Origin: Candidatus Nanosyncoccus sp. | GTDB lineage: Bacteria > Patescibacteriota > Saccharimonadia > Saccharimonadales > Saccharimonadaceae | Direction of reading: 5' to 3' | Length of the DNA: 24,000 nt | NCBI GenBank assembly: GCA_045651545.1 | Contig: JAZRSM010000015.1 | Coordinates: forward strand, 26,640 to 50,639 | Shown: positions 2,434 to 18,703 of the stretch, piece by piece | How positions within the stretch are numbered: position 1 is the first letter of the stretch | Layout: the number at the start of each line of letters is the position of its first letter | The notes under the pieces: model-generated | Told to the model about the DNA's origin: nothing | The model's input: the letters and a program-made list of their open reading frames with translations, nothing else | The model's database searches: none | Program-made: the position numbers and the translations under genes

Positions 2434-2444
2434 CGGCTAGCTTG

Positions 2445-2472
2445 AAAAACCGCTCGGTGACGAGCGGTTTTT
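2445..2472. terminator. Bidirectional rho-independent terminator between the convergent PBP and yacL-like genes
   Basis: AAAAACCGCTCG-GTGA-CGAGCGGTTTTT is a perfect GC-rich stem flanked by an A-run and a T-run. It lies between stop codons of convergent genes. Confidence 0.8.
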
Positions 2473-2474
2473 TG

Positions 2475-3158
2475 TTAAATCTTCTTGGCGAAGATGATGC
2501 GACCGGCGGAAGTTTGGTGAGCTTTAATGACCTCGGCGGTGATTTCTTTGCCGATTAGTTTAGAAGCATGATCAATAACAACCATAGTGCCGTCAGATAA
2601 ATGACCGACACCTTGGCCACGGTTGCTACCCTTTTCGGTGATTTTGAGGCGGAATTTGGTGCCTGGAGCAGTATTGCCAAGCAGTGAGACGGCGAGTTCG
2701 TTGACGTTTAAGACGTCGATATGTTCGGTAGCGGCGACTTTGTTAAGATTATAGTCGTTAGTGCAGATGAGGCCGTGATATTCCTTAGCAAGAGAGATAA
2801 GACGTTCGTCAACTGGGGTGCGGTCAAGCTCGTCCTCGTAGATTTCGGCATTACAAAAGACGACGCGCTCTAGTTCCCTAGCATTGTCCATACCGCGACG
2901 AGCGGCGGCACGCTTAATAGTGTCTTTACCGTCGGCGAGGAGTTGGAGCTCGCGAATGACCGATTTAGGAATCAAGAGGTCGTCACCAATGAAGCCGGTC
3001 TGGGCAACAGCGAGAAGACGACCATCAATTAGGGCAGAAGTATCAACAAAAACCTTGCGACGGCCAGATTTTTTGGTATCTTTTTTGAAGTTTTTGACCA
3101 AAATAACCGTGGTCTCCGCGAGAAGGACGAGGACGATAACGAGGATTAAAATTTCCAT
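2475..3158 (-). CDS. yacL: PIN/TRAM-domain membrane-anchored protein (YacL-like)
   Basis: N-terminal TM helix, then a PIN-like block (VDTSALIDGRL..QTGF, IPKSVIRELQLLADGKD, RRGMD) and a C-terminal TRAM-like block (GTMVVI..TSAGRIIFAK). This matches my recollection of B. subtilis YacL. Confidence 0.8.
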   Translation of the reverse strand: MEILILVIVLVLLAETTVILVKNFKKDTKKSGRRKVFVDTSALIDGRLLAVAQTGFIGDDLLIPKSVIRELQLLADGKDTIKRAAARRGMDNARELERVVFCNAEIYEDELDRTPVDERLISLAKEYHGLICTNDYNLNKVAATEHIDVLNVNELAVSLLGNTAPGTKFRLKITEKGSNRGQGVGHLSDGTMVVIDHASKLIGKEITAEVIKAHQTSAGRIIFAKKI

Positions 3159-3164
3159 TTTTAT

Positions 3165-3173
3165 ATTATACCA
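3165..3173 (-). promoter_or_regulatory. Extended -10 promoter (TGGTATAAT) 6 nt upstream of the yacL-like ATG; predicted leaderless mRNA
   Basis: The minus strand reads TGGTATAAT-ATAAAA-ATG. There is no Shine-Dalgarno sequence. The box overlaps the stop codon of the upstream phosphoketolase ORF. Confidence 0.5.
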
Positions 3174-4404
3174 TATTTATCAAATCTTCGCCAGTGGCGC
3201 GAGCGTGGTCAGCGTTCTGATTTAAGATGTTTTGATACTTTTCGATTAGGTCTGAGCGATTTTCGCGACGAGCGACGTCTAGGGCGAGGTCATAGCGAGA
3301 AGCGCCATTTAGGCGGAGCATCTCAAAAGGAGTGGTGGTGGAGCCGCGTTCATTGAAGCCATGAATAGAGAGGCGCTGGTTGTCGGCGTAGTTTATAAGG
3401 ATGGCACGGAGGGCATCTGGATAGCCGTGGAAGTTGGCGATAATTGGCTTGTCGGTAGTGAAATATTCATCAAAGATGTTTTGCGGCATTTTGTGGTCGG
3501 TGGTGCCGATGGCGCTGTAACTTAGAGCGTTGATACCAATGAAGCGGAAACGACGGTCTTTGATATCTTCTCTTAAGATATTGAGCGCGTAGATAGCTTC
3601 GCGCGTCATAATATCGCCAGCGGCAGTGAAGATATAATCAGGGTTATCATCATCATCGGAGGCAAAGCCAAAGATGCTGGCGCCATGTTCGTATTGGAAC
3701 TTAGCGTGATTTCTATCAATCCAGCGAGGTTCGTTGGTTTTGTTAAATGTTGTAAGATTTACAACATTTCTAGAGGAGTACATGAAATTGAAACAGGCGG
3801 CGGTAGCAACATCATCTACTGGGAAGAGGACATTGGAAAGGTTGCTAGGCTGGGAAAGTAGAGCAGAGATAAGAGCTGTGGACTGATGAGAAAAACCGTT
3901 GTGGTCTTGGCGCCAACAAGTGCTAGTGGAGAGGAGACTTAACGCAGGGACAGGGTCGCGCCAAGAAACGGTTTTTGATTGGTCAAGGAATTTGAGATAT
4001 TGGAAGAGCTGGGATGTAACGATACTGAAAAATGATTCGTAGCTCGTCATCATACCTTGGCCGCCCGAGAGGACATGGCCGATCATAGTGGCGAGGAGAA
4101 CGTTTTCCGAGAGAAGTTCGACAATGCGGCCAGAAGCAGATTCGGGGAGGTCCCATGATTCTTTTGGCAAGTTCCAAGCACGAGCGGTAGCATCGTAGGC
4201 GGTGGTGAGCTTGTTTGAAGTGGTTTCGTCAGGTGAGAAAAGGTAGAAAGTAGAGTCATTTTTAATGGCGTGTTTGATTAGCTCGCCGAATTTTTCAGCG
4301 GAAGAGTGGAATTCTTCACCTGGGGAGGTGATTTGGTCTGGGCCAAGGAGATGGTTAGGAATCATAGCGTTCATAGTTTTCGTGGTGTTCATAGTGATGC
4401 TCAT
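3166..4404 (-). CDS. xfp: Phosphoketolase (XFP family), middle + C-terminal portion encoded as a separate ORF
   Basis: FSPDETTSNKL, SYESF, WRQDHNGFSHQ and HGFNERGSTTTPFEM are collinear with the C-terminal two-thirds of known xylulose-5-P/fructose-6-P phosphoketolases. The ORF has its own AGGAGG about 10 nt upstream of the ATG, and the ATG overlaps the upstream stop (ATGA). Confidence 0.85.
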   Translation of the reverse strand: MSITMNTTKTMNAMIPNHLLGPDQITSPGEEFHSSAEKFGELIKHAIKNDSTFYLFSPDETTSNKLTTAYDATARAWNLPKESWDLPESASGRIVELLSENVLLATMIGHVLSGGQGMMTSYESFFSIVTSQLFQYLKFLDQSKTVSWRDPVPALSLLSTSTCWRQDHNGFSHQSTALISALLSQPSNLSNVLFPVDDVATAACFNFMYSSRNVVNLTTFNKTNEPRWIDRNHAKFQYEHGASIFGFASDDDDNPDYIFTAAGDIMTREAIYALNILREDIKDRRFRFIGINALSYSAIGTTDHKMPQNIFDEYFTTDKPIIANFHGYPDALRAILINYADNQRLSIHGFNERGSTTTPFEMLRLNGASRYDLALDVARRENRSDLIEKYQNILNQNADHARATGEDLINMV

Positions 4405-5354
4405 AGCGTGAAGCCCTCCTTTTTGTTGAAGAGTTCTTCAAAATGGTAGCTTTTTAGCCAGTCTGATAGCGTACTTAACTCGGCTTCGTCGGTTTTAGGA
4501 TGCTTTAATGGGATTTGATGAGAGAGGTAGTTGCCGGCGATTTTCTCATTGCGATAGAAAGTCGGTCCGGTTTTTCCCTTTTCTGATTTCATAATAAGGA
4601 AAGGATTAGCTTGGCTATTAGCAGATTCTATGGCGTCTTGGAAGGCATTGGCGTTTTCGCCGTTAAAGATACTAGGGGCATAGCCGAAACCGCGAAGCTG
4701 TTCTAGAAGTTCGCGCTCGGATTTCCTAGCGGCTACGGTTGGACCAGAAATTTTGTAGCCGTTAAGGTGGAGGATAGGCAGAACTTTGCCGTTAGCGTCT
4801 GTGCCGAGAAGCTTGGCAAGGTTAAGCGAAGCAAGTGCGGTGGCGGTTTCGAATTCGCCGTCACCGATGAGGACGGCTACGGTTTTTTCGGGGTGGCCTA
4901 GGGCGGCGCCATAAGCAGTAGCAAGCGCGTAGCCTAATTCCCCGCCTTCGCAGATGACCCCTGGGGTAACTGGGCTAGCATGAGACGGAAAACCACCTGG
5001 CCAAGAGAAATTTTTGCAGATGTAGGCGATACCTTCTGTGTCAGGTTTGGCACGGTCGTCAACTTGCGCTAGGTCGCCATCGAGGAAGAGGTTAGCTTGT
5101 AAGGCTGGGAAACCGTGCCCTGGGCCTAGGATAAAAGTGAAGCTATTACCATAGGCGTATTTAAGATTAGCATAAGTGAGATTGATACCGTGGCAAGTAC
5201 CCCAGTGACCAAGGAGGCGAGGTTTAATATCGTCTGCGGATAGTGGCTTTTCTAGGAGAAAGTTTGACTTTAGATAAAGCTGCGCAACAGAAAGATAGTC
5301 GCAAGCGCGGACGCGGCGCCCTATATATTCTGGATTGATGCCCAGCCCATACAT
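4401..5354 (-). CDS. xfp: Phosphoketolase (XFP family), N-terminal thiamine-diphosphate-binding portion encoded as a separate ORF
   Basis: LLGHWGTCHGIN, GPGHG, EGGELGYAL, GDGEFETA, LHLNGYKI and SHQIPL are collinear with the XFP N-terminal domain. The ORF stops in the interdomain linker. Confidence 0.85.
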   Translation of the reverse strand: MYGLGINPEYIGRRVRACDYLSVAQLYLKSNFLLEKPLSADDIKPRLLGHWGTCHGINLTYANLKYAYGNSFTFILGPGHGFPALQANLFLDGDLAQVDDRAKPDTEGIAYICKNFSWPGGFPSHASPVTPGVICEGGELGYALATAYGAALGHPEKTVAVLIGDGEFETATALASLNLAKLLGTDANGKVLPILHLNGYKISGPTVAARKSERELLEQLRGFGYAPSIFNGENANAFQDAIESANSQANPFLIMKSEKGKTGPTFYRNEKIAGNYLSHQIPLKHPKTDEAELSTLSDWLKSYHFEELFNKKEGFTL

Positions 5355-5360
5355 GACTTA

Positions 5361-5369
5361 ATTATACCA
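5361..5369 (-). promoter_or_regulatory. Extended -10 promoter (TGGTATAAT) 6 nt upstream of the phosphoketolase ATG; predicted leaderless mRNA
   Basis: The minus strand reads TGGTATAAT-TAAGTC-ATG, with no SD. Confidence 0.5.
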
Positions 5370-5440
5370 TAAGCGGAGTGGTTTTAAGCATAAGCATTGC
5401 AATTTTAAGCGTAGGCGGTATCGATTTAATCAGGTTTGAT

Positions 5441-6079
5441 TTAGCGATTGTGTTTGGCAAAGTCGTAAAGACGATCAACGAGCTCGGCGAAGACTTCTTC
5501 GCGAGTCATGTCGGCGCGAACTTGGACAAGGAGACCGAGAGCCTGATAGTGCTGAATGACTGGCATAGTTTTCTCGATGAATTCTTTAATACGGATACCA
5601 AAGATACCGCGGCTTTTGTCATCTTCACGTTTGGTGACTTCTTGACCAGTTTCGCGGACACCGTTGTCACGGACGGTTTCCCAACGACTTTCGACATCGG
5701 CTTCGGAAATATTAAGCAAAATAGCAGCCTTTATCGGATGGTCAGCCTCGGCGGCAGCGTTCATGACTTCATTTTCTTCGCCACTCCAACGGCCGACGGA
5801 AGACAAGACAAGTGCAGATTCCTTCAAATCGGGGCGCGCAAAATATGGCAAAACCCAATCGTAGAAAACATCAGTTGGAGCAAGGGCGCCACCTTCGGTG
5901 TAATGTTCACCTTTTTCTTGTTCCATAGCCCGGATAATCATGCCGGAAGACAAAAATCTGGCGCCAAGACTTTCGGCAAGTTTGATGCCGACGGTATCTT
6001 TGCCACTCATTGGTAAGCCAAAAATGTTGATAGAACCCGTGCCGAGCCATTCTTTGATGTATGCTAGTTTTTCTTCCAT
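5441..6079 (-). CDS. Adenylate kinase-family / P-loop nucleoside monophosphate kinase-like protein
   Basis: The P-loop-like motif GLPMSGKDT near the N-terminus, the size (212 aa) and the overall layout resemble NMP kinases. An AGGAG SD lies 6 nt upstream. Substrate specificity cannot be assigned. Confidence 0.55.
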   Translation of the reverse strand: MEEKLAYIKEWLGTGSINIFGLPMSGKDTVGIKLAESLGARFLSSGMIIRAMEQEKGEHYTEGGALAPTDVFYDWVLPYFARPDLKESALVLSSVGRWSGEENEVMNAAAEADHPIKAAILLNISEADVESRWETVRDNGVRETGQEVTKREDDKSRGIFGIRIKEFIEKTMPVIQHYQALGLLVQVRADMTREEVFAELVDRLYDFAKHNR

Positions 6080-6123
6080 TTGATTCTCCTTTACATTTTT
6101 GAATTATTTTTGCGCGTTAATTT

Positions 6124-6609
6124 TTAGACATTTTTGACTTTGACCATAGCGGGGCGAATAACGTTACCCTCGTAAATATAGCCAGCGCGCAAAGTTTCTG
6201 ACACGACTTCTTTTTCTCCTTCGGATTCTTCCATCATGATAGCGTCATGTAAATCTGGATTAAAGTCGGTGCCTGTAGCCGAGTCGATTTTTTGGAGCTT
6301 CAATTCGGTGAGAGTTTTTTCTAGATTTTTCTCAAGCGGCTTTAGCTCTGGAGTGGCGGCAATTGCGCGATCAATGTCGTCTAGGAGTGGTAAGATTTTG
6401 CGGACAGTTTCGTATTTAGCAAAAGAAGCGGCCTGAGCTTTTTGGGCGTCCATTTGTTTGCGATAGTTCTCGAAATCAGCGCGAGTACGCTGAAGATCGG
6501 CGGTTAGCTCGGCGATTTTCTGAGCGTATTGAGCGCTTTGTGAGCTGTTAGTTTGTGGGGCGTCAGCTTGTGGATTGTTAGTTTTTTGATTGTCGGATTT
6601 TTTAAGCAT
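6124..6609 (-). CDS. grpE: GrpE nucleotide exchange factor
   Basis: A coiled-coil region (LQRTRADFENYRKQ) followed by a C-terminal beta domain (HDAIMMEES..GYIYEGNVIRPAMVKV). A GAGGAGG SD is present. The gene overlaps the hrcA stop by 8 nt. Confidence 0.9.
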   Translation of the reverse strand: MLKKSDNQKTNNPQADAPQTNSSQSAQYAQKIAELTADLQRTRADFENYRKQMDAQKAQAASFAKYETVRKILPLLDDIDRAIAATPELKPLEKNLEKTLTELKLQKIDSATGTDFNPDLHDAIMMEESEGEKEVVSETLRAGYIYEGNVIRPAMVKVKNV

Positions 6610-7429
6610 TACATACCTCCTCTAACATATTTCCTGCGCGACGAACGAGCGACATGACGCGACCGTAATTCTGACGAGTCGGGCCAAGAACGCCAATATA
6701 ACTATTATCTGAATACGGCGAGCGGAATTTGCTGATAATTAGTGAAACTTCGGAAGTTTTGCCGATAGGATTTTCTTCGCCGATGAAAATATTGAGTGGC
6801 TCGCCTGGAGCGGCTTCACGGAGCCAAGGCTCGAGGTTATCTAGAAGTTTTGCGACGCTTTGGACGCGAGCGGTATCCATAAATTCTGGCTGAGTGAAGA
6901 GGCGTGACATACCGGCAAGGTAAAGCTGGTCGCCGATAGTAGCAAGACCGAGGTTACCAGTAAGCTCAACGAGAGAGTCGACGGCGCCACGAATTGCGAA
7001 ATCAGCGCGCTTTTGGGACTCGATGCGAAGCTTAATGGCGTGAGACTCACGTTCGGCGCGACCGTCGGAAAGAAGGCGCGAAAAACTAGTGAGTGAGCTT
7101 TCTGGAAGGGAGTTAGCCTGGTTGAGAGTGCCTGGATTAAGCGTGCTTTGGCTGGCGCCTTGGTTGGCGCTTGGATTGGCGCTGTTCATGTTTTCGGTAA
7201 GAGAATTAACATAGAGACGGTAGCCAGAGTCGGTCGGGACACGGCCGGCAGAAGTATGTGGCTGAACTAGCAAGCCAACTTCTTCTAGCTTGGCCATTTC
7301 GGAACGGATAGTAGCACTAGAAACACCAAAAAGTTTAGCCAAAGTAACCGAGCCAACAGGAGCGGCGGTTTCGGCGTATTCTTCGATAATTGCAAAGAGA
7401 ACTTCTTTTTGGCGCTTGGTAATTGTCAT
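6602..7429 (-). CDS. hrcA: HrcA heat-inducible transcription repressor
   Basis: N-terminal wHTH (RQKEVLFAIIEEY..PVGSVTLAK..VSSATIRSEMAKLEE.GLL.QPHTSAGRVPTDSGYRLYV). I place the start at ATG 7429 (MTITKRQ), not the tracked 7453, because a TATAAT box sits 6 nt upstream of 7429 and the CIRCE element lies beyond it. Confidence 0.9.
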   Translation of the reverse strand: MTITKRQKEVLFAIIEEYAETAAPVGSVTLAKLFGVSSATIRSEMAKLEEVGLLVQPHTSAGRVPTDSGYRLYVNSLTENMNSANPSANQGASQSTLNPGTLNQANSLPESSLTSFSRLLSDGRAERESHAIKLRIESQKRADFAIRGAVDSLVELTGNLGLATIGDQLYLAGMSRLFTQPEFMDTARVQSVAKLLDNLEPWLREAAPGEPLNIFIGEENPIGKTSEVSLIISKFRSPYSDNSYIGVLGPTRQNYGRVMSLVRRAGNMLEEVCNA

Positions 7430-7435
7430 AACTAT

Positions 7436-7441
7436 ATTATA
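7436..7441 (-). promoter_or_regulatory. -10 box (TATAAT) of the hrcA-grpE operon, 6 nt from the ATG
   Basis: The minus strand reads TATAAT-ATAGTT-ATG. CIRCE begins 6 nt further upstream and covers the -35 region. Confidence 0.5.
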
Positions 7442-7446
7442 GTAAA

Positions 7447-7473
7447 TTAGCACTTAAAATGCAAGAGTGCTAA
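7447..7473. promoter_or_regulatory. CIRCE operator (HrcA binding site)
   Basis: TTAGCACTT-N9-GAGTGCTAA has one mismatch to the canonical TTAGCACTC-N9-GAGTGCTAA consensus. It lies directly upstream of hrcA. Confidence 0.9.
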
Positions 7474-7534
7474 TTTTATTTAGCGCGGTGGGAATTTTTT
7501 GGAATTTTTGAGGTTTACATGCAAGTTGTGATGG

Positions 7535-9322
7535 CTAGTTGTCGCGTTTTAGCATGACGGTAAAGGCTTCTGAAGGGATGTCGATTTTGCCAAAGCGTTT
7601 CATGCGGGCTTTGCCGCGTTTTTGCTTTTCTAGCAATTTGGCTTTTCTATCGCGGTCGCCAGTATGAATTTTGACGGTGACATCTTTGCGGTATGCGCCG
7701 ATGGTTTCGCGGGCGATGATCCTGGCGCCGATGGCGGCCTGGAGTGCCACCTCAAAATTCTGACGAGGGATGACTTCTTTTAGCTTTTTCGTGATTTCGC
7801 GCCCGAGCGCGTCGGCCTCCGTGCGGTGGCACATACAGGCCAGTGCGTCGATTTTCTGGCCACCGACCAGAAAATCGACTCGCACCAAATCTTCTGGCCG
7901 ATAGTCGGCAAGCTCATAGTTAAACGAAGCATAGCCGGATGTAGACGACTTTAACTGGTCATAAAAGTCGGTCAGAAGATTTGCCATCGGCGCCTCAAAG
8001 TCTATAACGGCGCGATCTTCAATATAACTCAAATTAGTTTGGTGCCCGCGTTTTTCTACAATTAAATTTAGGACATTGCCAATCATAGTCTTAGGCACAA
8101 TAATTTCGCCCTTGACCCATGGCTCGCGGATTTCTAAAATCTCGTTCATGTCAGGAAGGTCGGCAGCGGATTTGATTTCCATTTCTTCACCAGAATTTAG
8201 TGTTACCTGATAATTAGTAGAAGGATTCGTAACGACTAAATCCAAATCGAATTCACGCTCCAAACGCTCACGAATGATGTCCATGTGGAGTAGCCCCAAG
8301 AAACCGATGCGAAGGCCAAAGCCCAACACTGGTGAATTTTCTGGCTCAAATTGAAGCGCAGAATCAGAAAGTGCTAATTTTTCGATAGCTTCTTTTAGGG
8401 TCTTGTAGTCCTCGTTAGAAACTGGGAAGAAACCAGCATAGACAAAAGGTTGGACATTTTTATACCCTGGAAGAGGCTCCGTGGCAGGCGACTTTACAAG
8501 TGTCACAGTATCGCCAACTTTAGCCTCGCGCGTAGTCTTTAAGTTCGTCACAATATAGCCGATTTCACCTTCCTCTAGCTCAGGCTTAGGACTCATCTCA
8601 GGCTTTAATATGCCAACTTCTAGAGCTAGGCCGTGACTGCCAGCGGCCATCATTTTAATTTCACTATTCTTTGGAAGTTTGCCGTCAAAAATTCTGACAT
8701 ATAAAACTACGCCACGGTAGTCGTCAAAATAGCTATCGAAAATTAAAGCACGCAGAGGCACCGAGTGCGATAGTGCCTTGCTCGGCGCTGGTGCTTTTTC
8801 GATGATTCTGTCTAGTACTTGCTCGACGTTGAGGCCGGTTTTGGCGGAGACGCCAATGATTTCTTCGCGGTCGCAGCCAAGAAGATTTACAATTTGGTCT
8901 TTAACTTTTTCGACGTCGGCAGCAGGAAGATCAATTTTGTTAATGACTGGAATGATGTATAAATCTTGTTCCAAAGCTAAATAGACATTGGCCAGAGTCT
9001 GCGCCTGAATGCCCTGCGTCGCATCAACTACCAGAATCGCGCTTTCTACGGCCTGAAGCGAGCGGCTAACTTCATAAGAAAAATCAACATGACCTGGGGT
9101 ATCAATTAGATTTAGCTCGTAGCCTTTGTAATGCATCTGCACAGGCGTGAGTTTAATCGTAATTCCCTTTTCGCGTTCAAGTTCCATGGAATCCAAAAGC
9201 TGCGCTTTCATTTCACGCTTTGCCACGGTGCCAGTGATTTCCATCATGCGGTCTGCAAGGGTGGATTTACCATGATCGATGTGAGCAATAATACAAAAAT
9301 TTCGGATTTTGTCGGTATTCAT
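7535..9322 (-). CDS. lepA: Translation elongation factor 4 (LepA/EF4)
   Basis: GTPase motifs AHIDHGKST, DTPGH and NKID, followed by the LepA-specific C-terminal domain (GARIIARE..YRKDV..K..GGD..RK.KLLEKQK.GK). Length is 595 aa. Confidence 0.95.
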   Translation of the reverse strand: MNTDKIRNFCIIAHIDHGKSTLADRMMEITGTVAKREMKAQLLDSMELEREKGITIKLTPVQMHYKGYELNLIDTPGHVDFSYEVSRSLQAVESAILVVDATQGIQAQTLANVYLALEQDLYIIPVINKIDLPAADVEKVKDQIVNLLGCDREEIIGVSAKTGLNVEQVLDRIIEKAPAPSKALSHSVPLRALIFDSYFDDYRGVVLYVRIFDGKLPKNSEIKMMAAGSHGLALEVGILKPEMSPKPELEEGEIGYIVTNLKTTREAKVGDTVTLVKSPATEPLPGYKNVQPFVYAGFFPVSNEDYKTLKEAIEKLALSDSALQFEPENSPVLGFGLRIGFLGLLHMDIIRERLEREFDLDLVVTNPSTNYQVTLNSGEEMEIKSAADLPDMNEILEIREPWVKGEIIVPKTMIGNVLNLIVEKRGHQTNLSYIEDRAVIDFEAPMANLLTDFYDQLKSSTSGYASFNYELADYRPEDLVRVDFLVGGQKIDALACMCHRTEADALGREITKKLKEVIPRQNFEVALQAAIGARIIARETIGAYRKDVTVKIHTGDRDRKAKLLEKQKRGKARMKRFGKIDIPSEAFTVMLKRDN

Positions 9323-9333
9323 TATTACTAACT

Positions 9334-9342
9334 ATTATAACA
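9334..9342 (-). promoter_or_regulatory. Extended -10 promoter (TGTTATAAT) 11 nt upstream of the lepA ATG
   Basis: The minus strand reads TGTTATAAT-AGTTAGTAATA-ATG. The box overlaps the tilS stop codon. No SD is present. Confidence 0.4.
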
Positions 9343-10168
9343 TAAAATAGGATTTATTAAACCTGACAAGTCTGTCTCTAGGAAGGTTAAATTTTTTGCC
9401 AGAATCATATGCTCTGACTGCGTCGAGAAAATCGCGGAGCTGGGGACGCGTGACAGAAATATTATGAGACATTAAAATGCTCCGCAAAAGTTCTTCGGCA
9501 GTTTCGTTGTCTAGCTCTTTAAATAAGTTACGCGGATAAGCTTTGTTGTCTAAAAAAAGTTTCGATAGATTTTGTTCGATTTCTTTACGTAAATCACATT
9601 GACGCGAATACAGTTCATCTAGTTTTTTAGCGGCGTCTGGTTGGGTCTTAATAAACTCGGCTACGGCAGGTCGGAGACGATTTCTTAAGTAAATATCTTC
9701 ATTGTTAGTTGGATCTTGACGAAAAACAATTTGATTTTTGCTAGCATAACGATAGATTTCGGACTTAGTAAAATGAAGCATAGGATGCTCGATTTCGGCA
9801 TTGTAAAACGGCGTTAAGCCGCGCCAGCCAGTACCGCGCAAAAGATTAATCGCGATAGACTCACACAAGTCATTCAGGTGATGTGCGGTGTAAATTTTGC
9901 CGTCTAGCTCGCTTGCTAATTTGCGCAAAAAGTTATAGCGAGCCTCGCGCGCAGTGGCCTCGGAAACATTGGCGCCAAGATTTGCTTTTTCAGTATAGAA
10001 AGGCAAGCGATATTTTAAGGCAAATTCTTCAACAAAATTTTGGTCATCATCGGCGGAGGCTCTAGTGCCATGGTTAAAATGTGCAACCACGACATCCGAA
10101 TCATCCTTCATCATATGTAAAAGGCACATCGAATCAACACCGCCAGAAATTGCCAAAATCTTCTTCAT
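9335..10168 (-). CDS. tilS: tRNA(Ile)-lysidine synthetase (TilS), short form
   Basis: PP-loop ATPase motif SGGVDS at residues 8-13 and AHHLND further in. Size (277 aa) fits an N-terminal catalytic domain plus a small C-terminal region. Confidence 0.85.
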   Translation of the reverse strand: MKKILAISGGVDSMCLLHMMKDDSDVVVAHFNHGTRASADDDQNFVEEFALKYRLPFYTEKANLGANVSEATAREARYNFLRKLASELDGKIYTAHHLNDLCESIAINLLRGTGWRGLTPFYNAEIEHPMLHFTKSEIYRYASKNQIVFRQDPTNNEDIYLRNRLRPAVAEFIKTQPDAAKKLDELYSRQCDLRKEIEQNLSKLFLDNKAYPRNLFKELDNETAEELLRSILMSHNISVTRPQLRDFLDAVRAYDSGKKFNLPRDRLVRFNKSYFML

Positions 10169-10176
10169 ATTGTGTA

Positions 10177-10185
10177 ATTATAACA
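10177..10185 (-). promoter_or_regulatory. Extended -10 promoter (TGTTATAAT) 8 nt upstream of the tilS ATG
   Basis: The minus strand reads TGTTATAAT-TACACAAT-ATG, with no SD. Confidence 0.45.
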
Positions 10186-10333
10186 TTGAATGGCCTAGTA
10201 TGGAAGTTTTAGGTCGTTTTTTCTTCAATGTTTTCAGGTGCTCGATGCTTTTCTGACTTTCGCTTGCTTCGTGTTGTTATCTCTATTATACCACACTCTG
10301 CGCAATTTTACCCACCATTTTTTGCGCAAAATG

Positions 10334-11230
10334 TTATGCCGCTGCGAAACGGACTTCGCGATAATGGTTGAAGAGTTTTTCCTGCTCTCCCTCCAAACCG
10401 TGGATGTAACGCTCGGTGGTTTCGGCGCGAGCGTGGCCGAGCATCTGCTGCATCTCCAAAAGCGTTGCGCCCTGCTTCTGAATATCAGTGCCGAAAGTAT
10501 GTCGCAGCGCGTGAGGGTAGAAGTTGTCGTAGCCAGCTTTCTCGAATACTTTTCTCATTCGGATGCGAAGTTCATCGTTACAAAGGTGGCGGTGGTATTC
10601 ATTCACCCATAGCCAGTCCGTAACATCGGCGACTTCGATCCATTCTTGCAGATATTCGTAGGTTTCAGTGGCCACCCAAACTGTTCTTTGCTTGAACCCT
10701 TTACCTATGAAGTTTATCTGACGACCTTTGAAACTGTCTAGCTGAAGGTTTCTGAGCTCAGAGATGCGGAGGCCTGTGTCAAAGCATACTCTTATCAGAA
10801 GCCAGTCCATCAAGTTTTGGCGGCGCTCGAAGTCATCCTCGGCTTCGAGATCTATCACCGACAAAACCTTAGCTATATCGTCCCTTAGATAGAAGACACG
10901 GCGCACTGGCCCTTCCTTGAGTTTTTGGATGAGTGGAGTTTTAATAGGGATGGTCATCCCCATTTCTCGGTGATATTTTATGAGGCAGATGATGTGAGCG
11001 GAGCGCATATTGATCGTCCGCGGACTGATGCCTTTCTTAGCCTGGGCTTTTACCCAGCGGTTGTAGTCGGCATTGTCTAACTGTTCCAAGTCCTTACACT
11101 TAGACTGCTCGATAAACTGCTTGTAGCAACATTTTTTAGCGGTGAGAGTCATCGGACTTACCTGCTTTACAAACTCGCAGTATTCCAGATACTCATTCAC
11201 CTGAGAATATATCGGATCTCCTTTTGACAT
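10334..11230 (-). CDS. int: Tyrosine recombinase / phage integrase
   Basis: C-terminal catalytic signature: R (GLRISELRNL), HALRHTF, LGHARAETTERYIH (His-X-X-Arg ... Tyr). An N-terminal SAM-like core-binding domain is present. Confidence 0.9.
   Translation of the reverse strand: MSKGDPIYSQVNEYLEYCEFVKQVSPMTLTAKKCCYKQFIEQSKCKDLEQLDNADYNRWVKAQAKKGISPRTINMRSAHIICLIKYHREMGMTIPIKTPLIQKLKEGPVRRVFYLRDDIAKVLSVIDLEAEDDFERRQNLMDWLLIRVCFDTGLRISELRNLQLDSFKGRQINFIGKGFKQRTVWVATETYEYLQEWIEVADVTDWLWVNEYHRHLCNDELRIRMRKVFEKAGYDNFYPHALRHTFGTDIQKQGATLLEMQQMLGHARAETTERYIHGLEGEQEKLFNHYREVRFAAA

Positions 11231-12782: not shown

Positions 12783-12793
<11 letters not shown>
12434..12793 (+). CDS. Hypothetical acidic/lysine-rich phage protein
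   Basis: AGGAGG SD 6 nt upstream. The ORF is tightly packed, with an 11-nt overlap with the next gene. A low-complexity K/E-rich central segment is present. Confidence 0.6.
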
Positions 12794-13619
<826 letters not shown>

Positions 13620-13621
13620 AA

Positions 13622-14704
13622 ATGGCAAAAGTTCTAGTTACTGAGCAACATCTACAAGACATCGCGGACTCTATTCGTGGCAAGAACGGCTCAGCCGCTA
13701 CCTATAAGCCAGGGCAGATGAGCGCAGCCATCGATGCTATTCCTACTGGTGGATCTACTCGGCCAGAAACCTGGGCGGAGTTCGCCGCTATGTCATCAAG
13801 CACGCTTCAGAAGTGCTATGGTGTAGGCGACCGAGTTGGCATCGCTTGTCCGTGGAAATCGCCGTCAAACAACACGACCTACGACTTAATGTGGGAGATC
13901 GCCGCTTTTGGAACGACCAAGAAAGAAAACGACAACACAGACTACCCTTGCGTTACGCTCGTTGCACGGCTCGCTACTCCTGGTTCTTATCAGTTTGATG
14001 CGGCAGAGACACCAACGGCTGCAACGGAAGAAACCGCGCAAGACGGTATCTACTACTTTGGCTTTGATGGCACGAATTATACGGCACTCAACCTATCTAC
14101 TGGAGATACTATTCCTTATGGCGACTATACGGCGGTGTATAAGACAGATGTTACGAACAATGTTCAAAAGTTCAACGAGATCCGCCAATACGGCTACAAT
14201 GTTTACAAATACTCGGCTATTCGTCAATGGCTAAACTCTGATGCGGATGCCAATAGCTGGTGGCAAGCAAGCCACATCGGCGATGTTGCGCCAAACTATA
14301 CGAACCAAAAAGGCTTTATGTCAGGGTTCGAGGCGGCCTTCAAGAACATCTTGCAAAGAACAGAAGTTGCAACCGCTGGCAACAACTACACCGATGACGG
14401 CTCTATCTACAAGACTTATGACTACTTCTTCTTGCCCTCAAGATATGAGCTCTACGCGACAAGCTCACCAGTTGAAGGCGACAGAATGCCATACTTTGGA
14501 GTGAATAACGCGAATGTTAGAGGTCTCACGGCTAGAGGCCCTGCCTCTGGCGGCAGCACCAACAGCTGGTGGGAGCGGTCTGCTTGTCACGGCAACGCTA
14601 GTGGCGCGTATAGTGTCGGCAGCAGCGGCACCCCAGGCAGCGGCAACAGCGCGAGCGGCGCTTATTGTGTGGTCGCGGCTTGTAAGATCATCTTAGCATC
14701 CTAA
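13622..14704 (+). CDS. DGR target (variable) protein; putative receptor-binding tail fibre tip with a C-terminal C-type-lectin-like variable domain
   Basis: GAGGAG SD. The C-terminal 48 codons (PASGGSTNSWWERSACHGNASGAYSVGSSGTPGSGNSASGAYCVVAAC) are the VR copy of the template repeat. The WW.RS-type scaffold is typical of DGR variable proteins. Confidence 0.9.
   Translation: MAKVLVTEQHLQDIADSIRGKNGSAATYKPGQMSAAIDAIPTGGSTRPETWAEFAAMSSSTLQKCYGVGDRVGIACPWKSPSNNTTYDLMWEIAAFGTTKKENDNTDYPCVTLVARLATPGSYQFDAAETPTAATEETAQDGIYYFGFDGTNYTALNLSTGDTIPYGDYTAVYKTDVTNNVQKFNEIRQYGYNVYKYSAIRQWLNSDADANSWWQASHIGDVAPNYTNQKGFMSGFEAAFKNILQRTEVATAGNNYTDDGSIYKTYDYFFLPSRYELYATSSPVEGDRMPYFGVNNANVRGLTARGPASGGSTNSWWERSACHGNASGAYSVGSSGTPGSGNSASGAYCVVAACKIILAS
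14542..14684 (+). repeat. DGR variable region (VR)
   Basis: Gap-free 143-bp alignment to 15213-15355 with 23 mismatches by manual count. Of these, 22 lie at positions that are A in the other copy. Confidence 0.9.
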
Positions 14705-14709
14705 GCATC

Positions 14710-14735
14710 GGCGGCGGACACTTCCGCCGCCTTTG
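14710..14735 (+). terminator. GC-rich hairpin plus a short T-run after the target gene; terminator and/or DGR target-recognition hairpin
   Basis: GGCGGCGGA-CACT-TCCGCCGCC (14710-14731) followed by TTTG. It begins 26 nt after the end of VR homology. Confidence 0.7.
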
Positions 14736-14744
14736 TCTCCTCTG

Positions 14745-14753
14745 TGATATAAT
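14745..14753 (+). promoter_or_regulatory. Extended -10 promoter (TGATATAAT) 6 nt upstream of the avd ATG; predicted leaderless avd-TR-RT transcript
   Basis: TGATATAAT-ATAAGT-ATG has the same geometry as the host leaderless promoters. It lies just downstream of the 14710 hairpin. Confidence 0.55.
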
Positions 14754-14759
14754 ATAAGT

Positions 14760-15182
14760 ATGAGCGTTGTGGAAGAAAAGCGCAAGAAAGGTAAACTTGA
14801 AGTCTGCATCAAGGCGCTGGAGCTTGCGACTTATACCATTCAAATCACGGCGAATGAAAAGGTTTTCGAGCCGAAATATCGTGCCGCGGTTACGAATGAC
14901 TTGATCTCCCACGCAAAAGACATCTATCTCATCTGCTGGACGGCCAACAATATCCGAGTCGCTAGCGAAGAGGCTTACAGGGAGCGGCGAAGACTTCAGG
15001 ACAAAGCCATCATTGAATGCACGACTTTTCTAGGCCTTCTTGATATTGCCAAGAAGGTCTTTCATCTTGAAACAAAAAGAGTAACTTACTGGGCGAAGAA
15101 GACGGTGGAATGCCGCTCGCTCATCCGAGCTTGGCGCAACTCGGACAAAGAAAGATACAAAGCGCGCTACGATACTTCGTAG
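14760..15182 (+). CDS. avd: DGR accessory variability determinant (Avd-like four-helix-bundle protein)
   Basis: 140 aa, basic, predicted all-helical. It sits between the target gene and TR, as in the Bordetella phage BPP-1 mtd-avd-TR-brt layout. Confidence 0.75.
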   Translation: MSVVEEKRKKGKLEVCIKALELATYTIQITANEKVFEPKYRAAVTNDLISHAKDIYLICWTANNIRVASEEAYRERRRLQDKAIIECTTFLGLLDIAKKVFHLETKRVTYWAKKTVECRSLIRAWRNSDKERYKARYDTS

Positions 15183-15212
15183 CGTAGGTTGTAGGCTAAA
15201 ATTGTTCTTGTG

Positions 15213-15355
15213 TGCCTCTGGCGGCAACACCAACAACTGGTGGGAGCGGTCTGCTAATCAGGGCAACGCTAATAACGCGTATAATGTCAACAACAACGGC
15301 AACCCAGGCAACAACAACAACGCGAGCAACGCTAATTATGTGGTCGCGGATTGTA
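15213..15355 (+). repeat. DGR template repeat (TR)
   Basis: Noncoding A-rich copy of the VR. In the VR frame it reads as 18 Asn codons (14 AAC + 4 AAT). The ORF-track peptides at 15202-15387 and 15212-15439 are artefacts of this repeat. Confidence 0.9.
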
Positions 15356-15537
15356 TCGACAACTTTCTATCGTGTGCCTGCGCGTAACGCAGGAGTGAAA
15401 GAGCATCTGATACGATACAAGGAGCCGAATACCTGCTAATTCCGTGGAATTGTGCGGAATTGCGAACAACTGTGCGGTGATGCGAGTTTATTTCTCCGAA
15501 CTAGGCTCGCTATCACACCGCACCTCAAGAGAAACGA
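15356..15537 (+). ncRNA. DGR spacer region between TR and RT (predicted structured part of the DGR RNA)
   Basis: Hairpin CCTGCG-CGTAA-CGCAGG (15377-15393). Small hairpin AATTC-CGTG-GAATT (15438-15451). Long interrupted stem GTGCGGTGATGCGAG (15472-15486) pairing with CTCGCTATCACACCGCAC (15506-15523). Confidence 0.5.
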
Positions 15538-15543
15538 GTGGTT

Positions 15544-16563
15544 ATGGAACATATTATCGGTTTTGATGCTCTCTATGAGAGTATGAACAAGTGCAAAAAT
15601 GGTGTTATATGGAAAGACAGCGTAGCTCATTTTGTCCTGAATGCAGTCGAAGAGACGATGAAGCTTGAAGAACAGCTCAAGACTGGCAAATACCGCTCGC
15701 GCAAAGGCCGAGTTTTCACCTTAGAAAGCCCAAAGCGCCGCCAGGCGATGGGAATACCTTTCCGAGACCGTGTATATCAGCGGAGCCTCTGCGACAATGA
15801 AATCTACCCTGAACTTACCAAGCATCTCATCAAAGACAACTTCGCCTGCCAAACTGGCAAAGGCACCGACTGCGCAAGAGCCAGGATGAAGCAGTTTCTG
15901 CGCCGCATCTATCAACGAGATGGCGGCGACTTTTATGCCCTACAATGCGACATCAGAGGTTACTGCCCCAATATGAACCACAAAGTAGCTGAAGACATCC
16001 TGAAGAAATACTTGAAGCCTGAAATCGCTGCTATGGCCATTGAAATACTACACCAGCAATACCCAGGCGAAGTCGGCTATCTTCCAGGCAGTCAGCTTGT
16101 CCAACTGCTCGGCATCTCCATCCTGAACCCAATGGATCACTACATCAAGGAAAAGCTCCGCATCAAAGAATACGGTCGCTATATGGACGACTTCCTTCTC
16201 TTCCATAAAGACAAAGTCTATCTCGAATACTGCAAAGACCAAATCGAAAAGGGCTTGAACGCGCGTGGTTACGAACTACATCCTAAGAAGACACGCATCT
16301 TCCACATCAAAGAGGGCTTTCGCTTTCTCGGCTTCTACTTCTCACTGACTGACACTGGCAAGGTTGTGATGCTTATCGATCCAAAGAATGTGAAGATGGC
16401 TAGAAGGCGCTTGCGCCGTATGGCTGGGCTAGTCCGAAAAGGCAAGCTCACCAGGCACAAAGTCGATGAATGCTACAAGTGCTGGCGCAACCACGCATCA
16501 AAGGGCGACTCACTCGCTCTGTTACAGCGAATGGACACCTTCTATGAAGACCTCTGGCACTAA
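15544..16563 (+). CDS. DGR-type reverse transcriptase
   Basis: RT motifs include the catalytic YMDDFLLF, an upstream ACQTGKGT motif typical of DGR RTs, and LPGSQLVQLLGISILNPMDH (SQ-containing motif 4 region). ATG 15544 is preferred, but GTG 15538 is possible. Confidence 0.9.
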   Translation: MEHIIGFDALYESMNKCKNGVIWKDSVAHFVLNAVEETMKLEEQLKTGKYRSRKGRVFTLESPKRRQAMGIPFRDRVYQRSLCDNEIYPELTKHLIKDNFACQTGKGTDCARARMKQFLRRIYQRDGGDFYALQCDIRGYCPNMNHKVAEDILKKYLKPEIAAMAIEILHQQYPGEVGYLPGSQLVQLLGISILNPMDHYIKEKLRIKEYGRYMDDFLLFHKDKVYLEYCKDQIEKGLNARGYELHPKKTRIFHIKEGFRFLGFYFSLTDTGKVVMLIDPKNVKMARRRLRRMAGLVRKGKLTRHKVDECYKCWRNHASKGDSLALLQRMDTFYEDLWH

Positions 16564-16566
16564 TTA

Positions 16567-16621
16567 TGGTATAATATAATCAGATCGACTGCGACTACTC
16601 GTTATGAGCGGTCGCTTTTTT
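16567..16621 (+). promoter_or_regulatory. Phage leader module B: extended -10 promoter + conserved 5' leader folded directly into an intrinsic terminator
   Basis: TGGTATAAT (16567-16575), a 6-nt spacer, then AGATCGACTGCGACT from 16582. The stem GCGACTACTC-GTTAT-GAGCGGTCGC (16591-16615) is followed by T6. The module starts 4 nt after the RT stop codon. Confidence 0.65.
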
Positions 16622-16624
16622 GAT

Positions 16625-17104
16625 ATGGAAGAAAATATGGCAGAGCAGACACCGCAACCAGAAGAAATAATGGCCGCAGAAGGCTCTGCTTTTGATAGCA
16701 AACTAACCGAAAGCACTGTAAAAAATACAACAGATGACAGAGAGGAAAAGAAAAAGATGGCTCAAGAGGCAGGCAATAACAACCCTACTGGTATCAACCA
16801 ATACACCCCCTCTGAGAAATGGTATGGCGCATCTTATCACGACACCAAAGTAGCCATCAAAGCTTATCTTGACTTCAACCCAGACGAGCACATCGAGTTC
16901 ATTGAGAGCTTGGTGAAGGATGCGATCAAAGGTGATCCGACAGCCAGGAAGCTTGTCGTCCAGCTCACTGGCGGTTTCGATCCGTCAGAAACCAAAGTTA
17001 CTGGCGAAGTGATGCAGATAGCAGAAAACCCTCTCAACCAGCTTTCTATCGAAGAGCTGCGCACGCTCAAAGCACTAAAAAAGGAGTCCAGCGATGGAAA
17101 ATAA
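16625..17104 (+). CDS. Hypothetical phage protein, possibly the small terminase subunit (by position)
   Basis: It lies upstream of the large terminase in the same operon. The GNNNPTGINQY segment resembles the GN.N..G motifs I recall in some small terminases. The tracked ATG at 16604 sits in the terminator hairpin loop, so ATG 16625 or 16637 is more plausible. Confidence 0.35.
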   Translation: MEENMAEQTPQPEEIMAAEGSAFDSKLTESTVKNTTDDREEKKKMAQEAGNNNPTGINQYTPSEKWYGASYHDTKVAIKAYLDFNPDEHIEFIESLVKDAIKGDPTARKLVVQLTGGFDPSETKVTGEVMQIAENPLNQLSIEELRTLKALKKESSDGK

Positions 17105-17210
17105 GAAGAAACGAACACTCAAGCCTCAGACCTTACTGGAAACTGGCCGCTGGAAAATCTCTGCCGAAGCCAAAGCTTTACTTGAGAAAATGAAGGGGGT
17201 GAAGAAATGA
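17094..17210 (+). CDS. Small basic ORF (38 aa), coupled on both sides
   Basis: ATG 17094 overlaps the end of the previous ORF. Its TGA overlaps the next ATG (ATGA at 17207-17210). Sequence is MENKKKRTLKPQTLLETGRWKISAEAKALLEKMKGVKK. It is below the ORF-track length cutoff. Confidence 0.35.
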   Translation: MENKKKRTLKPQTLLETGRWKISAEAKALLEKMKGVKK

Positions 17211-18703
17211 TCAGTGTCATCATCCCAGTCTATAACGAGGAGCCCTTCCTCGAACGATGCCTAGATAGCCTGGCCAAGCAGACGGACAAGTCGGCGCAAG
17301 TCATTATCGTGGATGATGGCTCAACCGATGGCTCGCCTAAAATCTGCGACCGCTACGGCAAGGAATATGGCTTTGAAGTTTATCACCTGGAAAACAATGG
17401 TGTCTCGGCCGCGCGCAACTTTGGGATGGAAAAGGTCAAGGGCGAATACCTTACCTTCTTAGATGCTGATGATGCCTACTCTTTGAACGCTATCGAAGTG
17501 ATGAATGGCTTGGCGAAGCGTGGCGACAATGTGATACAGTTCGGCCAATACCGCCACACCAAAACGCAAGAAGAGCCTATTCTGCGCGCCTGGCCAAAGG
17601 GCGACTATGACCTAGACCACTTACGGCGCTACTGGCAGATGGTATGGAACAAAATCTACAAGACGGAGTTCATCAAGAAAAACGACTTCAAGTTTATTCA
17701 AGGGATGCAGTTCGGCGAAGATGAGATGTTCAATGTGAATGTCCTACTGAAAAGCGGCGGACTTTATCATACATCGGACTTGCTCATCCACCACTACTTT
17801 GACAACACTAACTCTTTATGTCGTGGTGGGTTATGCTTGGCGCGGCTCGAACGGATGGACGATGAAGAGAACAGACTACTCAGACGGCTCAAACTAGGCG
17901 ATGCGCCTATTGCTCAACGGCGCTGGCTGAAGCGTGTCATCACTCGGCATCGCCACAGTAAGGTGTTCCAGGACTACGGCTTTACGCGTGGAACTACTGC
18001 GCACAATGACATCGTTTATTTTGTGAAGAATGAGTCTGAAAACGAAGAGCTCCGTTACTCTCTGCGCTCTGTCGAAAAGTTCTTCCCCCATCGGAATGTG
18101 TGGTTCTATGGCGGCAAGCCTGATGGTCTCAACCCAGACCGCTATGTGAAAGTCGAACAAACCGAAGACACCAAGTGGGAGCGTGTCCGCTCGATGCTGC
18201 GGCAAGCCTGCCTGAACGATGAAATCTCGGAAGACTTCTGGCTATTCAACGATGACTTCTTCATTATGAAACCCTATGCGGAGAATACTCCACCGACCTA
18301 CAATGGCGACCTATACCGCCATATTGTCCGTGTGGAAGAGCGCCACAACCAGCAAGCAACGACTTGGACGGCACGGCTCCGACACCTCGTGAACACGCTT
18401 GAAACCGCTAATAAAGGCACTTTGAACTACGCAGTCCACAAACCTATACTCATCAACCGCAAAAAAGCTCTGGAAGTCCTGGACAAGTTCCCAGACGAAC
18501 CGATGTTCCGTGCGTTATACGGTAACTACTGGGAAATCGGCGGCACAAACCAGGGCGATCGCAAGTGCCAGGTGATGGACTTCCCAGTTGAGACGCTAAA
18601 GAAATGGGCGACTATTTCGTCCGATGATAAGAGCTTCGCAGGCGGCACGGTTGGCGAATACATCCGTGGTCAATTCCCACAGAGAAGCAGGTTCGAGGAG
18701 TAG
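17207..18703 (+). CDS. Two-domain glycosyltransferase: N-terminal GT2 fused to a C-terminal Stealth-like (hexose-1-phosphoryltransferase family) domain
   Basis: GT2: IIPVYNEEPFLERCLDSL..QT...VIIVDDGSTDGS and DADD. C-terminal half: DIVYFV, ELRYSLRSVEKFFP, FWLFNDDFFIMKP and HKP resemble Stealth conserved regions CR1-CR3 from memory. Confidence 0.65.
   Translation: MISVIIPVYNEEPFLERCLDSLAKQTDKSAQVIIVDDGSTDGSPKICDRYGKEYGFEVYHLENNGVSAARNFGMEKVKGEYLTFLDADDAYSLNAIEVMNGLAKRGDNVIQFGQYRHTKTQEEPILRAWPKGDYDLDHLRRYWQMVWNKIYKTEFIKKNDFKFIQGMQFGEDEMFNVNVLLKSGGLYHTSDLLIHHYFDNTNSLCRGGLCLARLERMDDEENRLLRRLKLGDAPIAQRRWLKRVITRHRHSKVFQDYGFTRGTTAHNDIVYFVKNESENEELRYSLRSVEKFFPHRNVWFYGGKPDGLNPDRYVKVEQTEDTKWERVRSMLRQACLNDEISEDFWLFNDDFFIMKPYAENTPPTYNGDLYRHIVRVEERHNQQATTWTARLRHLVNTLETANKGTLNYAVHKPILINRKKALEVLDKFPDEPMFRALYGNYWEIGGTNQGDRKCQVMDFPVETLKKWATISSDDKSFAGGTVGEYIRGQFPQRSRFEE

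Follow-up and report, generated by a model that had tools for sequence, protein, structure and literature searches.

We identified a complete diversity-generating retroelement (DGR), with its parts ordered as in phage BPP-1, at positions 13622–16563 of a 24,000-nucleotide stretch of a Candidatus Nanosyncoccus sp. assembly (GCA_045651545.1, contig JAZRSM010000015.1, positions 26,640 to 50,639 of the forward strand; hereafter the window). DGRs are well-known systems in which error-prone reverse transcription rewrites the tip of one phage protein. The element comprises three open reading frames (ORFs), all on the plus strand, of 360, 140 and 341 aa, which encode the target protein, the accessory variability determinant (Avd) and a reverse transcriptase (RT), respectively. 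A non-coding gap of 355 bp separates the last two ORFs and holds the template repeat (TR). The ORF map and the comparison with BPP-1 bear out a previous model-made reading of the bare nucleotides (hereafter the sequence-only reading), which had proposed a complete target-avd-TR-RT element in BPP-1 order. The element is very probably an intact DGR borne by a temperate siphovirus-like phage, whose prophage of about 35 kb is inserted just upstream of tilS in a Saccharibacteria (Nanosyncoccus-like) chromosome and carries the DGR at its integrase-proximal end.

The repeat pair and its adenine signature

The variable repeat (VR) at the 3' end of the target gene matched the TR over 143 bp without gaps, and the similarity stopped sharply at both borders (coordinates in Table 1). 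In an exact position-by-position comparison the two copies differed at 23 positions, and 22 of those mismatches fell on adenines of the TR (18 A>G, 2 A>T and 2 A>C), counts identical to those of the sequence-only reading. With 45 adenines among the 143 TR positions, 22 or more of the 23 mismatches would fall on A with a hypergeometric probability of 1.8e-12. We also scanned the whole window blindly for repeats in which a single base of one copy accounts for every mismatch; the scan recovered this pair for A and none for C, G or T.

Read in the target frame, the TR contains 14 AAC and 4 AAT codons, with the translation ASGGNTNNWWERSANQGNANNAYNVNNNGNPGNNNNASNANYVVADC, as had been proposed, and no stop codon is reachable by substitution of a TR adenine. 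The 18 codons allow 15^18 = 10^21.2 variants, in line with the earlier estimate of about 10^21, with an upper bound of 10^25.4 if every A-containing codon is counted. In the window VR, 18 of the 22 adenine substitutions are A>G, which gives a Ser/Gly-rich surface. The VR had been described as the last 48 codons of the ORF; it does lie near the ORF end, but it covers residues 308–354 of 360 and six more codons follow it.

The most 3' adenine mismatch sets TR A15350 against VR C14679 (GAT versus GCT); a GC-rich stretch, GGTCGCGG, also lies at the 3' end. A difference of this type is kept across almost the whole RT family, with GCT or occasionally GTT in the VR, so it may be a fixed or strongly selected difference and not the outcome of recent mutagenesis. 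Judged from the alignments, it may act as a directionality marker or represent a selected residue (Ala/Val). We rejected the conserved 3' A/C difference as a firm marker of the IMH/IMH* (initiation of mutagenic homing) type because some relatives carry T.

Template-to-target transfer in related phages

The RT family profile matched 552 relatives in IMG/VR. We found an adenine-only VR/TR pair in the same layout in 69 of the 80 loci that were retrieved (51–94% RT identity), and most of the remaining 11 were truncated upstream. RT relatives down to 33% identity each adjoined an adenine-biased VR/TR pair.

The closest relative (L095, from SRR12711473; related contigs are given here by L numbers) encodes a target protein 95% identical to that of the window, and 18 of the 19 amino-acid differences are within the VR. 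Upstream of the VR the two target genes are 98% identical at the DNA level, and the two TRs differ at 9 positions. The L095 VR equals its own TR at every non-A position, and all of its mismatches (16 of 16) fall on TR adenines. Since the L095 VR tracks its own diverged TR, template-to-target transfer took place after the two lineages split.

A sister phage with an RT 84% identical to that of the window was represented by six contigs from different samples (L002–L007). These contigs carry an identical RT and an identical TR, together with at least four VR haplotypes that differ only at TR-adenine sites. The relatives show a variable VR beside an invariant TR, the reverse of the monomorphic VR with polymorphic TR that the sequence-only reading had set against its own proposal, and the DGR is visibly active in these related populations. 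Contigs L007 (1–542), L096 and L106 (both at the start) stop or turn chimeric within the VR, as would happen if assembly broke down at a hypervariable site.

The reverse transcriptase and Avd

The 341-aa ORF matched Pfam RVT_1 and PHROG 1423 (E = 2.7e-75); an alternative ATG at 15544 would give 339 aa, the length seen in homologues. The profile of the RT family aligned colinearly with BPP-1 Brt over 313/328 residues (hhalign probability 99.45%, E = 4.9e-22), without a maturase or endonuclease extension beyond the Brt end. The YMDD motif lies at residues 215–218, and R68 aligns with R74 of bRT, a residue that promotes adenine mutagenesis (PMC7826257). The nearest named relatives were RTs of gut phages, among them nd12 (37% identity), Shimadzu (34%), and Lelie and Brigit (both about 31%).

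The 140-aa ORF had been called a basic, helical, Avd-like protein, and its calculated pI of 9.5, its match to PHROG 3206 'Avd protein of DGR' (E = 3e-14) and its predicted fold all agree with that description. The AlphaFold2 model, built with 43 homologues, is a four-helix bundle (predicted local distance difference test, pLDDT, 90.6). Its best Foldseek matches were 2rld and 2gsc (template modelling score, TM, 0.82–0.87), and BPP-1 Avd (4dwl_D and 8ub7_E) matched with a TM of 0.82 and a root-mean-square deviation of 2.3–2.4.

An ordinary diverged duplication or gene-conversion tract, next to an RT from a group II intron, a retron or a defence system, could in principle produce a similar arrangement. 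In the PDB search with the single RT sequence, the group II maturase 6me0 (5.8e-15) scored about as well as BPP-1 bRT (8ub7_A, 2.8e-14, nearly full length), and PADLOC returned moderate matches to defence-type RTs (UG4, 84.9 bits). We consider such an origin extremely improbable: it would leave the adenine bias to chance at the probability given above, and it does not account for directional TR-to-VR transfer in relatives, for an RT that is colinear with Brt and ends without a maturase or endonuclease extension, or for the presence of Avd. A group II intron was rejected, as the Rfam search gave no RNA at the gathering threshold or at E <= 1, the TIGR04416 model reached 79.8 bits versus a cut-off of 300, and the RT ends with Brt. 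Retron and other defence RTs were rejected as well; the retron St85 RT model scored 19 bits versus 235 and Drt3a 34 versus 200, Rfam yielded no retron RNA, and the PADLOC matches were partial matches to the RT core only.

Table 1. Features of the DGR and of the adjoining phage region, in window coordinates.
Feature	Position	Strand	Description
Left prophage junction (attL)	10169..10190	.	6 nt upstream of the tilS start codon (10168, minus strand)
Phage tyrosine integrase	10334..11230	-	Pfam Phage_integrase, E = 7e-28
Collagen-repeat protein	12783..13619	+	Pfam Collagen, E = 4e-16; directly upstream of the target gene
DGR target gene	13622..14704	+	360 aa; DUF6273 at residues 182-349
Variable repeat (VR)	14542-14684	+	target residues 308-354; gap-free match to the TR
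GC-rich hairpin	14710..14731	+	9-bp stem, CACT loop; from terminator scan
Extended -10 promoter-like element	14745..14755	+	TGATATAATAT; 5 nt before the avd ATG
avd (accessory variability determinant)	14760..15182	+	140 aa, pI 9.5; PHROG 3206, fold
Near-invariant motif	15186..15198	+	AGGTTGTAGGCTA; between the avd stop codon and the TR
Template repeat (TR)	15213-15355	+	non-coding; 45 A; 18 AAY codons in the target frame
Structured spacer RNA	15356..15537	+	182 nt between TR and RT; covariation
DGR reverse transcriptase	15538..16563	+	341 aa from GTG; RVT_1, PHROG 1423

Structured RNA and cis elements

The spacer between TR and RT has the features of a structured RNA. We found a stem-loop at 15377–15393, the motif ACAAGGAGCCGAATACC at 15417–15433, and a long-range helix in which 15472–15479 pairs with 15516–15523 and encloses further stems. 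In an alignment of 35 distinct family members the structure comprised 29 pairs, with 87% of the alignment cells paired versus 35–47% in slid controls; 26 of the 29 pairs showed double-sided changes, and none of 500 shuffles reached the observed values. The spacer, like the rest of the sequence searched, matched no Rfam family at the gathering threshold or at E <= 1. Priming in BPP-1 depends on structured RNA to either side of the TR, and RNA of this kind is predicted to occur widely (preprint 10.1101/2023.10.23.563531); the spacer of the window would by analogy be equivalent to the BPP-1 spacer elements.

Throughout the RT family, near-invariant motifs flank the TR, with GUAGGCU on its upstream side and AAGGAGCCGAA on its downstream side; GNUGUAGGCU stands directly upstream of the TR in loci with 51–94% RT identity. 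The upstream motif of the window (Table 1) may be an RNA element that pairs with the spacer or is recognised together with it. GGCU and AGCC of the flanking motifs could pair on grounds of complementarity; both motifs are invariant, so no covariation is available for this pairing. RNAduplex found no consistent pairing of the sequences before and after the TR that would be an analogue of the cPRT stop duplex.

The GC-rich hairpin begins 25 nt past the VR and 5 nt past the target stop codon, and a hairpin after the VR is kept in all related lineages. In L097 and L098 the stem carries compensatory changes around the same loop, while L099 and L103 have other GC-rich hairpins with loops of 4–5 nt at the same position. 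The hairpin may double as the terminator of the target gene. The promoter-like element upstream of avd is conserved in relatives as well, and we infer that it marks the start of transcription of an avd-TR-spacer RNA. Its pattern, TGNTATAATAT, had 3 matches in the window versus 0 expected: 14745–14755 (+), 16567–16577 (+) and 3163–3173 (-). In two cases, avd (14760) and the PIN-TRAM gene (3158), the match lies 5 nt before the start codon, which suggests leaderless transcripts in both the organism and the phage.

The target protein

The C-terminal part of the target (residues 182–349) matched Pfam DUF6273 (E = 6e-18), a documented DGR target domain (PMC10743442, PMC11792537). The AlphaFold2 model of the protein had a mean pLDDT of 93.7, and its best match among solved structures was the IgA peptidase of Thomasclavelia ramosa (9qa6, Foldseek E = 3e-7), whose N-terminal domain is DUF6273 (PMC12402451). 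Many phage DUF6273 proteins matched the target in BFVD, and its N-terminal helical segment of 45 residues is common to other phage surface proteins there.

In the sister phage (L002 7772–9193; L002–L007) the target has 473 aa, with a Big_2 Ig-like domain inserted before DUF6273, and the targets of other relatives have 532–617 aa with further Ig-like domains. Such insertions indicate that the N-terminal part of the target is modular.

Observations that weigh against a working DGR

Several observations weigh against reading the locus as a complete and working DGR. The motif [I/V/L]GxxxSQ is diagnostic of most DGR RTs and stands outside the operational DGR definition (PMC7826257). The RT of the window carries PGSQLVQ at residues 183–189 in its place; the sequence-only reading was right about the YMDD, and its claim of a DGR-like RT is weaker in this one point. 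Compared with the canonical form, the motif starts with Pro and has Val or Ile at the position of Ser; the final Q, which is P in non-DGR RTs, is retained. The family consensus is PGSQ[LM][VI]Q, and neighbouring RT clades have LGSDVAQ, LGSEVNQ or the canonical IGNQSSQ, each beside a verified adenine-biased VR/TR pair.

Sequence and profile searches with Avd against PDB and Pfam, and hhalign against BPP-1 Avd, gave no match, so the question of its identity was decided by the fold comparison. No sequence similarity was found by hhalign between the target and BPP-1 Mtd. A C-type lectin fold had been expected for the target; the structure prediction was confident, but the Lcl C-terminal domain was the single C-type-lectin-like match in Foldseek, and a weak one (probability 0.41). 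Assignment of this fold would thus draw on the DUF6273 literature (PMC10743442) and not on our Foldseek result.

In the repeats, one mismatch is not on an adenine (TR G15261 versus VR C14590), and at least one ordinary mutation or RT error must have occurred since the last transfer. The substitutions of the window VR are A>G in 82% of cases versus 41% among 1,117 substitutions in the family (in the family, adenine changed to G in 41%, to T in 33% and to C in 26%; P = 1e-4); this skew could reflect selection. Finally, transfer was seen in the contigs of relatives, and this exact element is known from one assembled sequence.

The observations on the repeats and the single assembled sequence would also fit a genuine DGR that was once active and no longer retrohomes in the lysogen, with the A>G skew as a sign of long selection on one fixed variant and the VR now frozen. 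We think it unlikely that the element is such a fossil copy. All components are intact, including the full-length RT with YMDD, Avd, the TR, the spacer RNA helices, the hairpin and the promoter-like element. Moreover, the TR-to-VR transfer in L095 postdates the divergence of the TRs, and the sister lineages are polymorphic in nature.

Prophage and host context

The first part of the window (1–10168) is cellular and encodes PBP1A, PIN-TRAM, phosphoketolase, GrpE, HrcA, LepA and TilS. LepA shared 94% identity with Candidatus Saccharibacteria genomes from the gut of ruminants and 84% with Candidatus Nanosyncoccus nanoralicus, and several homologues of the DGR proteins carry a Saccharibacteria annotation. 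The host thus belongs to a lineage of reduced-genome episymbionts, as the sequence-only reading had hinted. The phosphoketolase (3166–5354, minus strand) is split in two ORFs with a 4-bp overlap, XFP_N at 4401–5354 and XFP with XFP_C at 3166–4404; this is either a frameshift/pseudogene or a naturally split gene.

Homology to the contigs L095, L003 and L011 starts at window position 10175, and the sequence is phage from there onward. L003, L011, L013 and L095 have phage genes in place of host genes on either side of the integrase, so these contigs correspond to the non-integrated form. The free-form contigs contain a perfect 22-bp palindrome, CAATGTTATAATTATAACATTG (L095 1675–1698), of which the window retains the right half only; the palindrome probably represents the attP core. 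A different integration site, beside tyrS and tgt, is used by the sister phage L002.

From 10175, the phage genes are ordered as integrase, small ORFs, collagen-repeat protein, DGR, a 166-aa ORF, a family 2 (GT2)/Stealth-like glycosyltransferase, terminase, portal and MuF protein, and the integrase has an identical position in all related phage contigs. Those contigs continue with scaffold, capsid, head-tail and tail-tube genes, the tail-tube gene being about 10 kb downstream of the cassette. Many of the homologue-bearing contigs are 34–36 kb long, which suggests a phage genome of about 35 kb. A megablast of the cassette against GenBank phages gave nothing beyond a match to the collagen-repeat protein. 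The integrase, terminase, portal and MuF genes corroborate the prophage setting of the sequence-only reading, whereas its 'fibre module' is not borne out: the gene order places the cassette between the integrase/lysogeny and the packaging (terminase) modules, and the sole fibre-like neighbour is the collagen-repeat protein. This protein is a possible fibre stalk, with PHROG tail-fibre matches limited to the Gly-X-Y repeats. Its length varies among the window and close relatives (L095, L002 and L011), with 278, 305, 308 and 350 aa, presumably through the number of Gly-X-Y repeats.

A cassette outside the tail module would also fit an active DGR whose target is not a receptor-binding fibre tip. 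The target could then be another surface protein of the virion, such as a head or tail decoration or an adhesin (compare the tentaclin or Hoc-like DGR targets), or a prophage protein used by the lysogen. The absence of a signal peptide or membrane anchor from the target sequence speaks against these alternatives, and phage DGRs typically target tail proteins (PMC12636319). The annotations point both ways: the best PHROG match of the DUF6273 part is 'Hoc-like head decoration', while in BFVD some of the matching proteins carry the labels tail-collar fibre and receptor-binding protein. The Big_2 Ig-like insertion in the 473-aa targets of sister phages and the presence of DUF6273 in a secreted bacterial IgA peptidase (PMC12402451) would suit a non-fibre target; the position of the gene directly after a collagen-repeat protein typical of fibres, and the N-terminal helical segment in common with other phage surface proteins, would not. 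We regard a non-fibre target as possible, though rather unlikely, and infer that the target is a virion-associated ligand binder that acts as a receptor-binding tip.

Directly after the RT we found an acidic, conserved ORF of 166 aa (16604–17104, plus strand), followed by a 38-aa ORF in relatives; the 166-aa ORF had no family match in Pfam, PHROGs, NCBIfam or PADLOC. The next large ORF (17207–18703, plus strand) encodes a 498-aa phage protein with a GT2 glycosyltransferase domain at its N-terminus and a weak match to Stealth CR2. This ORF, located between the DGR and the terminase, is kept in all related phages and may be a gene for modification of surface glycans (lysogenic conversion).

Proposed mechanism

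By analogy with BPP-1, the element would be transcribed as one RNA over avd, the TR and the structured spacer, probably started at the extended -10 element (14745). This RNA would be bound by the RT together with a pentameric Avd, and the spacer would prime cDNA synthesis over the TR, as BPP-1 biochemistry suggests (PMC6182149, preprint 10.1101/2023.10.23.563531). The RT would misincorporate solely opposite template adenines, which is seen indirectly in the differences between VR and TR: all but one in the window, and all in relatives, fall on TR adenines. The cDNA would then replace the VR at the 3' end of the DUF6273 gene; the direction and the transfer itself are apparent from the co-variation of TR and VR in relatives. 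Guidance would come from the GC-rich 3' end common to both repeats and, putatively, from the hairpin after the VR. As a result, up to 18 Asn-coded positions would vary on the C-terminal face of a ligand-binding protein associated with the virion, and the most likely role of this protein would be adsorption to the Saccharibacteria surface.

Significance and comparison with known systems

DGRs have been catalogued by the tens of thousands and are well understood, so the element adds a member and not a principle. Its value is in its context, a phage-type DGR in a temperate phage of an animal-gut Saccharibacteria lineage; to our knowledge, the phage biology of Saccharibacteria and other bacteria of the candidate phyla radiation (CPR) is barely explored. 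The target provides a marker protein for phage recognition of the surface of an episymbiont. The PGxxxVQ RT is a natural variant for the study of the determinants of adenine mutagenesis, and for a large phage clade (>550 IMG/VR loci) the spacer provides a covariation-supported RNA consensus for which Rfam holds no family. Minor points of specialist interest are the host, the variant RT signature and this spacer consensus, and the sole unusual feature is that the DGR-bearing prophage sits in an ultra-small Saccharibacteria (TM7) bacterium.

The general idea that ultra-small episymbionts are rich in DGR-diversified binding proteins applies to the element as well as to the cellular DGRs of CPR/Patescibacteria. 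The latter (clade 2, PMC8144416) have the same host superphylum but are described as almost entirely encoded by cells and mostly aquatic, whereas the DGR of the window is encoded by a phage of animal-gut-type Saccharibacteria. In the same study (Roux et al. 2021, PMC8144416), the phage DGR clades are described as infecting Firmicutes, Bacteroidetes and Proteobacteria. Our literature searches on DGRs in Saccharibacteria phages found nothing specific. A bolder claim would be that this is the first documented, naturally active phage-type DGR in temperate Saccharibacteria phages, distinct from the cell-encoded aquatic CPR clade, with an RT clade that mutagenises adenines with Pro in place of the [I/V/L] that promotes misincorporation by bRT. 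In its boldest form, the lysogen would vary its attachment to its own bacterial host through the diversified DUF6273 protein, instead of or besides phage adsorption. In our estimate this claim is very doubtful.

The DUF6273-targeting DGRs of gut phages (target2 of phages nd4 and nd12, and Faecalibacterium phages Lelie, CP11, Roos and Pioen) also carry the VR at the C-terminus of the DUF6273 domain. Target2 of nd4 and nd12, like the target of the window, forms one globular domain flanked by short helices (PMC10743442, PMC11792537). RT identity between these phages and the window is only 30–40%, their hosts are Bacillota, and several of them have two targets, in contrast with the one VR in the 24-kb window and its Saccharibacteria host.

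BPP-1 (mtd-avd-TR-brt) has the same layout as the window, with a VR at the 3' end of the target followed by avd, a non-coding TR, a spacer and the RT. The two RTs align colinearly (hhalign 99.45%), with bRT R74 equivalent to R68 of the window, and the Avd proteins are alike in fold (TM 0.82 to 4dwl and 8ub7) but not in sequence. Both elements have a GC-rich hairpin with a 4-nt loop after the VR and structured RNA downstream of the TR, and in both the cassette lies near the phage attachment site. In contrast, the target of the window is a DUF6273 protein without detectable sequence similarity to Mtd, its RT signature is PGSQLVQ versus IGSLTSQ in BPP-1, and its host is a Saccharibacteria episymbiont and not a proteobacterium. 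Tail-fibre and lysis genes adjoin the BPP-1 cassette, whereas a collagen-repeat gene and the packaging module adjoin that of the window. The architecture, the mechanism and the target family of the element are all already known, from BPP-1 and from the DUF6273 DGRs of gut phages (PMC10743442, PMC11792537).

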